From: Candidatus Thorarchaeota archaeon
GTDB lineage: Archaea; Asgardarchaeota; Thorarchaeia; Thorarchaeales; Thorarchaeaceae
Assembly (NCBI GenBank): GCA_048882325.1
Contig: JBHLRS010000025.1
Span: forward strand, 1 to 45,366
Reading direction: 5' to 3'
Length of the DNA stretch: 45,366 bases
Below are positions 30,369 through 32,831 of this stretch, piece after piece; position 1 is the stretch's first letter; the number at the start of each line of letters is the position of its first letter. The notes beneath the pieces were generated by a model that made no database searches, was not told the DNA's origin, and saw only the letters and a program-made list of their open reading frames with translations. The translations under genes were made by a program, and so were the position numbers.

Positions 30369-30475
30369 GGGTCGGTGGTCTAGCTTGGTATGATTCTTGG
30401 TTCGGATCCAAGGGATCGCGAGTTCAAGCGAGATGGGACTTCCCCACCTCGGAGCAAATCTCGTCCGGCCCACCA
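30369..30475 (+). tRNA. tRNA-Pro(CGG) with 30-nt non-canonical intron (30428-30457) at position 58/59 and encoded CCA
   Basis: Acceptor GGGTCGG/CCGGCCC-A-CCA; anticodon arm CTTGG-TTCGGAT-CCAAG; T-arm GCGAG-TTCAA|AT-CTCGT after intron removal; BHB-like structure GTTC/GAGC with AAG and AAA bulges. Confidence 0.92.
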
Positions 30476-30490
30476 TTCCTAATTTTGATC

Positions 30491-31108
30491 CTAAGTGCTA
30501 GCTTCGTATAGACCAACACCACGAATGGCTTGATAGGTTGGATATAGAGTAACTAACAGGACAAACATGCCTCCAAGTGGATAGATAATTGTTCCACTAA
30601 GATAGAGAAAGAGAATTTGTGTAATGAGAATGAATTGTAGAGAAATAAGTAAAAGGGCTGAAGACTTTCCTTGTTTTCTGGGAACTATTTTCTTTCTTTC
30701 AATTAGAGTGAATAAGCCAACAAGAACAACCACAACTAGAAGGAGGAATATCCCTAGACTTAAGCCAGAGAAATAGTGTTGTGCATGAATAAAATGGGAT
30801 TGGTCTTCCTGCAGAGCAAACTGCAGAATGGGAACTCCTTTTGGCCAACCAAAACTTATAGTGTAACTGAAAAGATTTGCATCATAATTGCGATATTGCT
30901 GAATACAAAATGGGTATGCTACTGGTGAAAAGACTCGTAAAGCTTCATCTTCACTTAATGGGATTTCTGTGATAGGTGGTAGACTAGCCATTACTGCAAT
31001 TATGAAAGATACGACAAGTCCAACAGAAAGCAGTTGGACTATTTGTCCCCAACCTGTTTTGCTGACTAATAACCACGCAACTACAACAATGACAATCACA
31101 ACGATCAA
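30491..31108 (-). CDS. Hypothetical multi-pass membrane protein (islet cargo)
   Basis: 205-aa ORF, ~5 hydrophobic segments, AT-rich (19/60 G+C in 30601-30660). Confidence 0.7.
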   Translation of the reverse strand: MIVVIVIVVVAWLLVSKTGWGQIVQLLSVGLVVSFIIAVMASLPPITEIPLSEDEALRVFSPVAYPFCIQQYRNYDANLFSYTISFGWPKGVPILQFALQEDQSHFIHAQHYFSGLSLGIFLLLVVVVLVGLFTLIERKKIVPRKQGKSSALLLISLQFILITQILFLYLSGTIIYPLGGMFVLLVTLYPTYQAIRGVGLYEAST

Positions 31109-31170
31109 TCGATTGCAGTCCTATCTTTCTTTAGTCTTATATCACACCCTTCGGACATATGACTTCCGAC

Positions 31171-31197
31171 AGTTCGAATCTCGTCCGGCCCACCATT
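31171..31197 (+). repeat. Duplicated 3' end of tRNA-Pro (attR-like), intron-less form
   Basis: AGTTCGAATCTCGTCCGGCCCACCATT, 26/27 identical to the spliced tRNA 3' end plus 2 trailer nt. Confidence 0.9.
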
Positions 31198-31278
31198 ACT
31201 TATTCTAATTCTATCCTGTCAGATTGCGATGTTGACACCTATTGTTACAGGAGACATCTAGGTTTCATAATCGTGAGA

Positions 31279-31758
31279 CTAACGTGATAGTAACGCATAG
31301 AGAATGATTGCAGCGGTACCAGATGGACCTATGTCGACACGTGCATCTAGACTCCTGCACTCGCCCATGTCCATCTCCTTTTTTGAAAAGGAACTGTTAC
31401 TACCAGAGAGCATGATGACAACTCGTTCTCCTGACTTTGCCTGTTGAGCAAGCTGGCTCAAATCTAGACGCTCCTTGGTCAGAACAGGTGATGTAATGAG
31501 TAAAGGCTTCGCTACGTTCAGGACTTCTAGGACGTCCTTGAGGTCAGGAAGGACCATGAAGTTGTGCTTCATCTTCATAGCCAGACGGTTTGCATCAGGG
31601 ACCCCAGCTTGAGCTGCCGACCCCTCAGCCTTGGAAACCACGAAGTTAGAGAACCCGAGTCCATATACCACTTGGGCTGTTTCAACTGTCTTTGATGCTG
31701 AATGGACATTATGTAAGACCACGTAGACATTCTTGAGGAGATCAGTCAATGTGAGCAC
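31279..31758 (-). CDS. SpoU/SPOUT-like conserved archaeal protein (DUF2122-like)
   Basis: VYVVLHNVHS, GSAAQAGVP, LPDLKD, SGSNSSFSKKE, IGPSG; true start may be TTG 31749. Confidence 0.65.
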   Translation of the reverse strand: MLTLTDLLKNVYVVLHNVHSASKTVETAQVVYGLGFSNFVVSKAEGSAAQAGVPDANRLAMKMKHNFMVLPDLKDVLEVLNVAKPLLITSPVLTKERLDLSQLAQQAKSGERVVIMLSGSNSSFSKKEMDMGECRSLDARVDIGPSGTAAIILYALLSR

Positions 31759-32713
31759 ATACCTCCTGTGCGATAAGCTGGGACACTACTGGGGGAACAC
31801 TCTCTCCCACTTGATTGTATTGGCTGTCGGAAAAGCCAGTGAAGACAAAGGAGTCGGGATAGCTCATCAGGCGTGCATGTTCGCGAACCGTCAGAAGTCG
31901 GTTCTCATATGGGTGGATGTACCGTGAGAGCCCGTTTATCGAGGTTGAAACTTGATCAGGATACAGACGGACCCAGTTTGGAAGACTTCTGTTCTTTGAC
32001 ACTCGGAATTGTCTAACTCCTTGGCCGTATCGGGTTTTCGCAATGGCCTTTGCCTTTTCCTCAGATACAGGATAATCAACATGATTTGGAACATGCACTT
32101 CCGGATCAAGTATCTGATTCAGTCCAAGACTAGGGAGGTCTCCAATTGCCTCTATAACGGTGACCGATGCTTTTCGTGGGAGTTTGAATTTCAGATTACT
32201 AATGAAGACGCGAAGCCGTTTGGAAGGATTTCCGTGTTGATTGGCTCGTATCATATTGATATGTACATCATCGATATCGACACGTTTGAACTCCTTCTGG
32301 ATGATTTCCCAACCTCCAGAATTTAGTAATGCCGCCACATTCTCAATTACAAAGACCTTCGGTGACAGATCACCAATGATACGGATTGCATCCAGCAATA
32401 GCTTTCCTGTTCCTTCACCATAGACCCTCTCTGCTGCCGACTTCTTGCTATCAGGGTTAGCTTTACTGAATTCTTCACAAGGTGGTGATGCAATGATGAC
32501 ATCTGGAGGGCCATTCAGAAATTCTTCGATTTGGATAGAATGTAAATCATGAATGTCAGTCTGCCAGACTTCAGATGATGGAAAATTGAGCTTGTATGTT
32601 TCTAGTGCTGAAGAATCAATGTCTATTGCCAGATGGGTACCATCAGTATGAGGTTTGAACCCAAATGAGAAACCTCCAGCTCCGCAGAACAGATCTAGAA
32701 TCCTCATACACAT
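31742..32713 (-). CDS. C5 cytosine methyltransferase (Dcm family), orphan
   Basis: LDLFCGAGGF (I), SPPC (IV), ENV (VI), R.RVF (VIII), LTVREHARLMSYPD (IX), QVGESVPP (X). Confidence 0.9.
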   Translation of the reverse strand: MCMRILDLFCGAGGFSFGFKPHTDGTHLAIDIDSSALETYKLNFPSSEVWQTDIHDLHSIQIEEFLNGPPDVIIASPPCEEFSKANPDSKKSAAERVYGEGTGKLLLDAIRIIGDLSPKVFVIENVAALLNSGGWEIIQKEFKRVDIDDVHINMIRANQHGNPSKRLRVFISNLKFKLPRKASVTVIEAIGDLPSLGLNQILDPEVHVPNHVDYPVSEEKAKAIAKTRYGQGVRQFRVSKNRSLPNWVRLYPDQVSTSINGLSRYIHPYENRLLTVREHARLMSYPDSFVFTGFSDSQYNQVGESVPPVVSQLIAQEVCAHID

Positions 32714-32831
32714 ATCCACAATCCATCTGGTTTGTCTTGCAGCTACCTCTGATTATAACAATGTCGAAGGAAGACTTCAAAAGTATCGAGTATCTACGAC
32801 GACTTTAAACTGCTACCGTGTGTGAGAGAGA

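Follow-up and report, generated by a model that had tools for sequence, protein, structure and literature searches.

An apparently lineage-specific T-loop intron in a Thorarchaeota tRNA-Pro(CGG) gene, beside a duplicated tRNA 3' end and a conserved cassette gene

Results

The tRNA-Pro(CGG) gene and its T-loop intron

The DNA under study is contig 25 of a Thorarchaeota (Asgard) MAG (3.6 Mb in 89 contigs, 44% G+C, 93% complete), and the window is the whole stretch of 45,366 nucleotides that was analysed. Read directly, 30369-30475 (+) is a tRNA-Pro(CGG) gene with an encoded CCA, the only gene copy with CGG in the genome. Behind it lies an insert of 695 bp holding one gene and bounded by two copies of the tRNA 3' end. 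The features are as follows.

30369..30427, + strand: tRNA-Pro(CGG) exon 1, from the acceptor 5' strand to T-loop position 58 (direct reading; cloverleaf after splicing; syntenic orthologs in 27 congeners)
30428..30457, + strand: BHB intron of 30 nt at T-loop 58/59 (fold, covariation, absence from 27 congeneric orthologs)
30458..30475, + strand: tRNA-Pro(CGG) exon 2, including the encoded CCA (direct reading)
30421..30477, + strand: attL, the left 27-bp copy, of which 7 nt (30421-30427) precede and 20 nt (30458-30477) follow the intron
30491..31108, - strand: cassette gene for an apparent multi-pass membrane protein of 205 aa, an intact ORF in 7 aligned lineages
31171..31197, + strand: attR, the intron-less copy, tRNA positions 52-76 plus 2 nt
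31198..31278, no strand: original downstream flank of the tRNA, on the host side of attR; homologous DNA comes right after the CCA in empty congeners

An earlier note on this DNA had placed a 30-nt intron in the T-loop, and this is borne out, with the intron at 58/59 and boundaries (30428..30457) that could slide by no more than 2 nt in an A run. In the T-arm fold, a 4-bp central helix of exon GUUC with intron GAGC lies between two 3-nt bulges, AAG and AAA, at the exon-intron junctions, as in a BHB motif; there is an inner 4-bp helix, CGAG/CUCG, and the outer helix is weak, at 2+2 bp. Cuts after the second base of each bulge restore a 7-nt T-loop, and the spliced 77-nt sequence forms a cloverleaf that equals the intron-less orthologs except at position 57. 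Among 17 related T-loop introns, 15-17 preserve each of seven proposed intron-internal pairs, inner and apical, and more than one type of pair occurs at a given position; the BHB structure of this T-loop intron family is maintained via compensatory changes. Two genes with an EndA domain are present (open frames of 187 and 234 aa), which would be compatible with the two-subunit endonuclease type, described in PMC5829648 as broad in specificity and able to cut non-canonical sites. The pre-tRNA would presumably be spliced by a two-subunit EndA and a ligase to give the 7-nt T-loop. No RNA run contained more than 4% of the sampled words.

Neither ARAGORN, with or without its intron mode, nor Rfam at the gathering threshold calls this tRNA-Pro(CGG), so that standard annotation misses the gene, which was instead delimited by hand and from its fold. 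For the whole assembly ARAGORN reports 14 uninterrupted tRNA genes, and 31 tRNA genes when anticodon-loop introns are allowed. Such low counts indicate that many of the tRNAs have non-canonical or multiple introns and are missed by standard callers. Might the intron be an assembly artefact? It is not, since the intron-bearing junction occurs with identical sequence in independent Logan contigs from several runs and two studies. A second allele with one changed intron base is also present among them. No intron-less joint for this strain was seen among the Logan contigs, which are uninformative on rare variants.

A duplicated tRNA 3' end

The 27-mer at 31171-31197 occurs once in the window (0 expected in 100 shuffles), and the duplication runs from tRNA position 52 to 2 nt past the CCA. 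It matches the intron-less 3' end of the tRNA at 26 of 27 positions, the sole mismatch being G versus A at tRNA position 57, and matches the genomic, intron-bearing form over 21 contiguous nt only (30457-30477); both figures reproduce those first reported from the sequence. The syntenic locus, with metallophosphoesterase, tRNA, DUF2122 nuclease and C5 methylase, could be traced in each of the 27 other species representatives of the genus, as well as in several metagenome contigs, and an orthologous tRNA-Pro(CGG) is found in 27 of 27 congeners, at the syntenic site or partly so. In congeners with an empty site (e.g. G020, G010 and G021), the CCA of the tRNA is directly followed by the homologue of 31198 onward, a flank that in the window (31198-31278) leads into the DUF2122 nuclease gene at 31279-31758 (-). 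Because the right flank of attR directly follows the tRNA in most relatives, the 695 bp are an insertion with target duplication. The 27-mer genuinely duplicates the tRNA 3' end in the manner of an att site, and its proposed identity as one stands.

The nuclease and methylase genes (31279-32719, -), for a RecB-family nuclease (DUF2122) and a C5 cytosine DNA methylase, overlap by 17 nt. They keep their synteny throughout the genus and resemble a restriction-modification pair; they are part of the conserved backbone, outside the insert.

Does another tRNA account better for the repeat, as the earlier note had allowed? The T-stems of Pro(GGG) (contig 9) and Pro(UGG) (contig 30) differ from the 27-mer, tRNA-Val(GAC) on contig 20 differs at 3 positions, and a 3' fragment on contig 20 agrees at 25/27; none of the genome's other tRNAs is a better match to the 27-mer. 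Congeners have a tRNA-Val(CAC) with identical last 25 nt, that is, the same 3' end as the 27-mer. Contig 20 has an island of its own (1-2688, locus L063), in which the tRNA-Val(GAC) gene opens the contig and a 3' fragment of 32 nt, resembling tRNA-Val(CAC), lies 2.6 kb further on. Between them are a MerB-like gene and a 444-aa ORF that has no Pfam domain; neither at this tRNA-Val island nor in a 17-kb att-repeat island of G013 was an integrase found.

The repeat had been taken for a passive fossil of integration, and this description does not hold. The attR occupies the same place in six lineages, in which it is perfect or different only at position 57; the copy of G014 has 6 mismatches in 26, and attR is unrecognisable in G022, G012 and C14-20. 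The pattern is bimodal, with strong retention in the six lineages and collapse in the rest. In the well-kept lineages attR has 0-1 differences in 25 nt, against 2-7 changes in the adjacent 24 nt. Synonymous divergence between these lineages is 0.39-0.95, a level at which 25 neutral bases should have taken up some 8 changes or more. Conservation so far beyond that of the surrounding neutral DNA means that attR is not a passive relic, and that it is the weaker as a time capsule; possibly the tRNA end keeps it homogenised, or recombination reuses it, or it is under selection. No T-loop-spanning exchange has occurred between the repeat copies since the intron arrived. As a test of an element-derived attR arm, the A or G at position 57 gave no consistent pattern.

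The cassette behind the tRNA

The cassette protein has no Pfam domain and no credible Atlas neighbour. Its mean column identity is 76% over the 7 aligned lineages, its ORF is intact everywhere with dN/dS of 0.17-0.40, and the gene is under purifying selection. It is single-copy in this genome, and among 70 homologs of the protein each one bearing an organism name is from Thorarchaeota. At this site the cassette occurs in ten lineages, one of them from beyond the genus: this genome, G008, G011, G012, G014, G022, G043, mgP0014, mgP0018 and the outgroup MAG C14-20. Identity of the cassette protein tracks that of the flanking genes (r 0.89), with no pair much closer than its flanks. In the nearest genome available the cassette protein is 85% identical, and the terminal branch to this species is long. 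On the flank-protein tree the cassette is found in the outgroup and in both major clades, and its presence and absence require 9-10 changes, of which well-supported branches force at least 7. The simplest history would be an ancient docking, mostly vertical inheritance, and many precise losses.

Turnover of cassettes at the site is fast among close relatives. Of a near-identical trio at this site, G018 is empty, G019 has another cassette and mgP0018 has the islet. The cassette of G019, at the same tRNA-Pro(CGG) site (contig 343, locus L126, 2966-3742, -), encodes a 258-aa Peptidase_M23 protein, and the repeat at its boundary copies just the final ~20 nt of the tRNA (att copy at ~2924-2940). 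A suspected case of filled and empty alleles within G008 was rejected, as its two contigs break at the tRNA and abut.

One would expect an integrated island to bring a recombinase. The insert does have the tRNA 3'-end direct repeat at its bounds, and relatives have empty sites; no tyrosine or serine recombinase gene lies in or beside it, the neighbouring genes have no recombinase domain, and PF00589 and PF16795 have no match in the whole 93%-complete assembly. Absence of PF00589 would also mean the absence of a XerA-like protein; control genomes all scored. The suggestion that the intron had stranded an integrated islet is not supported, as there is no integrase to be blocked, and the islet is a conserved and selected gene.

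Distribution of the intron among relatives

The T-loop intron is absent from the tRNA-Pro(CGG) ortholog in 27 of 27 congeners, six of which have the cassette. These intron-less orthologs polarise the gain as recent, and from the sequence comparisons the intron appears to be a derived, lineage-specific gain; an ancient intron shared by all relatives, which the earlier note had named as the outcome that would count against it, is not what is seen. The idea that the intron arrived with the cassette, suggested by BLAST joins, was rejected, as the T-loops of G008, G011, G014, G022, G012 and G043 are intron-less.

A T-loop insert at the same position is found elsewhere in the tRNA-Pro(CGG) of C14-20 (63% identical to the present intron) and in variant contigs of the mgP0018 lineage (27/30). 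In the mgP0018 lineage a cassette identical at 714/714 nt stands beside both an intron-less allele (L081) and intron-bearing ones (L083, L084). In the L084 allele, in the last ~210 nt of the locus, the right end of a multi-copy TnpB (IS200/IS605-type) element abuts position 27, and there is a 41-nt insert after the anticodon stem in addition to the T-loop intron. The TnpB end repeat reaches up to 28 copies in congeners and is essentially missing from this genome.

Other inserts in the same gene are equally patchy: a 30-nt insert in the D-arm occurs in G001, G011, G012 and G016, and one in the anticodon stem in G001 and G007. The D-arm insert is conserved yet missing from nearest relatives; G016 has it and mgP0014 does not, their flanks being nearly identical. 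Patchiness among near-identical flanks indicates that intron turnover at tRNA-Pro(CGG) is very fast.

Relatives of the intron in other tRNA genes

Where are the closest relatives of the intron? This genome has four or five T-loop introns at 58/59, of 29-30 nt (Pro-GGG, Leu, Ala-CGC, Pro-CGG and one uncertain), and the closest to ours is that of Pro-GGG, at 77% (82% over a wider T-arm stretch). The nearest relative is the T-loop intron in the tRNA-Ala(UGC) of G042, identical at 29/30 (97%), which is the best of about 23 comparisons of a 30-nt, structure-constrained sequence. The tRNA-Ala(UGC) introns of G018 and G019 are 28/30 (93%) identical to the Pro(CGG) intron, and the next nearest are those of Ala-CGC in G021 (83%) and Thr-CGU in G015 (80%). 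For comparison, the Pro(GGG) T-loop intron of this genome, which was inherited vertically, shows only 57-83% identity with its orthologs.

The 58/59 intron of tRNA-Ala(UGC) is present in four congeners and absent in at least 11. The tRNA-Ala(UGC) of this genome (contig 8, ~78338-78446, -) has no 58/59 intron and has a different insert, of ~31 nt, at 53/54. Location of tRNA-Ala(UGC) in an rRNA operon was considered as an explanation for slow evolution and dismissed, as no rRNA lies within 1.5 kb on either side. A scan of metagenome contigs for the intron clade gave only one more tRNA-Ala(UGC) gene.

The hosts of the family are Ala-UGC, Ala-CGC, Thr-CGU and Leu-CAG, with GCGAG as the 5' strand of the T-stem, and Pro-GGG with a different T-stem. 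Around the intron, ~12 nt on the 5' side and 6 nt on the 3' side are identical between recipient and donor-type genes. Position 57 is A in all intron carriers and G in the attR here. As in a transposed family, different tRNA types have, at one and the same position, introns that reach 80-90% identity or more; the donor and recipient copies are not in the same genome, where such a family would have them.

Discussion

Arrival of the intron

The locus is a well-documented intron gain, of a BHB intron with an identifiable donor family. The kind of event is a known one, non-canonical archaeal tRNA introns moving between tRNA genes; what is new here is the 29/30 identity to a tRNA-Ala(UGC) T-loop intron of another species. 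Since that identity exceeds the 57-83% seen between orthologous introns, it points to copying between tRNA genes that have a common T-arm. The intron would not have been made de novo, belonging as it does to a T-loop intron family. On the terminal branch to this species, the T-loop would have gained the 30-nt BHB intron at 58/59 while the downstream repeat stayed uninterrupted. The most likely route would be ectopic conversion at the DNA level across the common T-arm, which would also explain the lone G-to-A at position 57. Against conversion, this 93%-complete assembly contains no donor above 77% intron identity; the source copy may have been lost from the lineage, may be unassembled, or may have been foreign. 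Reverse splicing at the RNA level is a possible alternative route of arrival.

Order of events

Which came first, cassette or intron? The earlier note had offered two branches: either the intron was inserted after integration, or the element carried an attP from an intron-less tRNA. Parsimony and the co-divergence of cassette and flanks favour the former, with neither branch refuted, and we lean mildly toward a cassette that was resident first and an intron that came later. That order depends on parsimony, and with turnover at the site so fast the cassette could have re-docked after the intron; nor does a homogenised, reused or selected attR make a clean time capsule. It is possible, if unlikely, that the intron came first, and that a cassette with an attP from an intron-less tRNA-Pro or tRNA-Val(CAC) docked or re-docked via the 20-21-nt 3' core, in which case the intron-less part of attR would be element DNA and not a record of the host gene. 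The 21 nt of contiguous identity lie wholly 3' of the intron, the different cassette of G019 has only the last ~20 nt in common, and attL and attR are unequal at position 57 in four of the six lineages, so that the crossover would lie on its 3' side. The same order is helped by the identical 714-nt cassette beside intron-less and intron-bearing alleles in mgP0018, by the quick turnover of the site among close relatives, and by the 25-nt 3' end that the tRNA-Val(CAC) of congeners has in common with the repeat. It must be set against the divergence of the cassette, which follows that of its flanks with no cassette pair markedly closer than they are; against the presence of the cassette in the outgroup and both major clades, for which residence since the ancestor is simpler; and against the failure to find a recombinase in this genome.

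Could a mobile element have delivered the intron? In the model of Sugahara 2012, an element with an intron-bearing att would integrate 5' of the intron and excise 3' of it, or recombine in some other way, and the intron would stay behind. There is precedent for this (PMC3293823), the site is an active docking hotspot, the intron clade is more identical across species than orthologous introns are, and all differences between the mgP0018 variant and its intron-less counterpart lie left of the T-loop/3' core, which fits a breakpoint at the att. We nevertheless find delivery quite improbable. This intron is missing from the nine other cassette lineages, of which eight are uninterrupted and C14-20 has an unrelated insert at the same position, and hence the cassette itself did not bring the intron. 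No element remnant lies between tRNA and cassette. The search of viral contigs that the earlier note had proposed gave no hits, whether exact or degenerate forms of the att core and intron clade were used, and the metagenome contigs yielded only a tRNA-Ala(UGC) gene. One might also suppose that the intron is ancestral to tRNA-Pro(CGG) and was lost precisely many times, e.g. by conversion from attR or from cDNA, as the same-position T-loop inserts in the tRNA-Pro(CGG) of C14-20 and of the mgP0018 variant might suggest. This seems very improbable: the intron is absent in 27/27 congeners, including every close relative on the flank tree, the C14-20 intron is only 63% identical as against 93-97% for the tRNA-Ala(UGC) introns, and the attR T-loop is uninterrupted in six lineages.

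Comparison with known systems

Families of transposed tRNA introns are known in Thermoproteales (Sugahara 2008 and Fujishima 2010, as cited in bioRxiv 10.64898/2026.10.13.758758). They have in common with the present case short BHB introns at non-canonical positions, in near-identical copies at one position across isoacceptor types, that are absent from the orthologs of relatives. The present case differs in concerning an Asgard genus and in having its near-identical copies in different species, the best within-genome figure being 77%. It also differs from those families in that all carriers except tRNA-Pro(GGG) have the T-stem 5' strand GCGAG, which suggests conversion via exon homology. A census of Asgard tRNA introns (bioRxiv 10.64898/2026.10.13.758758, Oct 2026) documents many terminal gains but names no general route of arrival, and in its focal classes it found hardly any intron families that cross isotypes; its text does not mention Thorarchaeota. 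The gain described here resembles those of the census in lying on a terminal branch at a BHB-competent site, many of which are in the T-arm and are often missed by annotators. It departs from them in belonging to a cross-isotype family at 93-97% identity.

In Caldiarchaeum subterraneum tRNA-Thr(GGU) (Sugahara 2012, PMC3293823), the insert encodes a recombinase, and the intron was proposed to come with the insert. Both loci have a tRNA fragment displaced by inserted DNA beside an intron-bearing tRNA, and heterogeneity within a natural population. Unlike that locus, ours has no recombinase, and its cassette occurs in eight lineages with an uninterrupted T-loop; the co-occurrence of intron and inserted element expected under the Sugahara 2012 model does not obtain here.

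Introns and integrating elements

Integrase att sites in tRNA genes reportedly include a T-loop sublocation, which Williams is said to have described in 2002, and Randau and Söll are said to have proposed in 2008 that tRNA introns or splits protect against integration. The present identity block resembles such T-loop sites in running from the T-arm to the tRNA 3' end, with the intron at the 5' edge of the block. It is unlike integrase att systems in that the searches turned up no integrase, in having its minimal core on the 3' side of the intron, and in showing no evidence of protection. The earlier note saw in this locus, as one option, an att site disrupted by an intron and, more broadly, a possible contest between intron gain and element targeting. 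The 20-21-nt core 3' of the intron, common to every cassette at this site, is intact, and a cassette is found in G019 that shares only this core; the intron therefore need not block recombination. The attR has decayed or vanished in intron-less lineages too, and an identical islet (714/714 nt) lies beside intron-less and intron-bearing alleles. An arms race between intron and element, or protection of the gene by the intron, is not supported, and the intron fits best as a neutral passenger in a rapid turnover of introns rather than as a defence.

What, then, does the locus offer? It tempers the idea that introns shield tRNA genes, as the core is intact and cassettes lie beside both interrupted and uninterrupted alleles. 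For archaeal protein-spliced tRNA introns, the 2026 Asgard census found many gains and no route of arrival. The present case is unusually clean, with 27 intron-less orthologs that polarise the gain and with the pre-gain T-loop still written 720 bp downstream. A near-identical intron in another tRNA type of a sister species, with the T-arm shared on both sides, makes conversion-type copying testable. We entertain, as a tentative reading a little short of an even chance, that a young T-loop intron family is spreading in this genus, both between tRNAs that share a T-arm (Ala-UGC to Pro-CGG) and between species. If this is true, the locus keeps the recipient as it was before the event (in attR and in the orthologs) and after it, together with a near-identical donor-type copy, and would provide sequence-level evidence of how an Asgard tRNA intron arrived.
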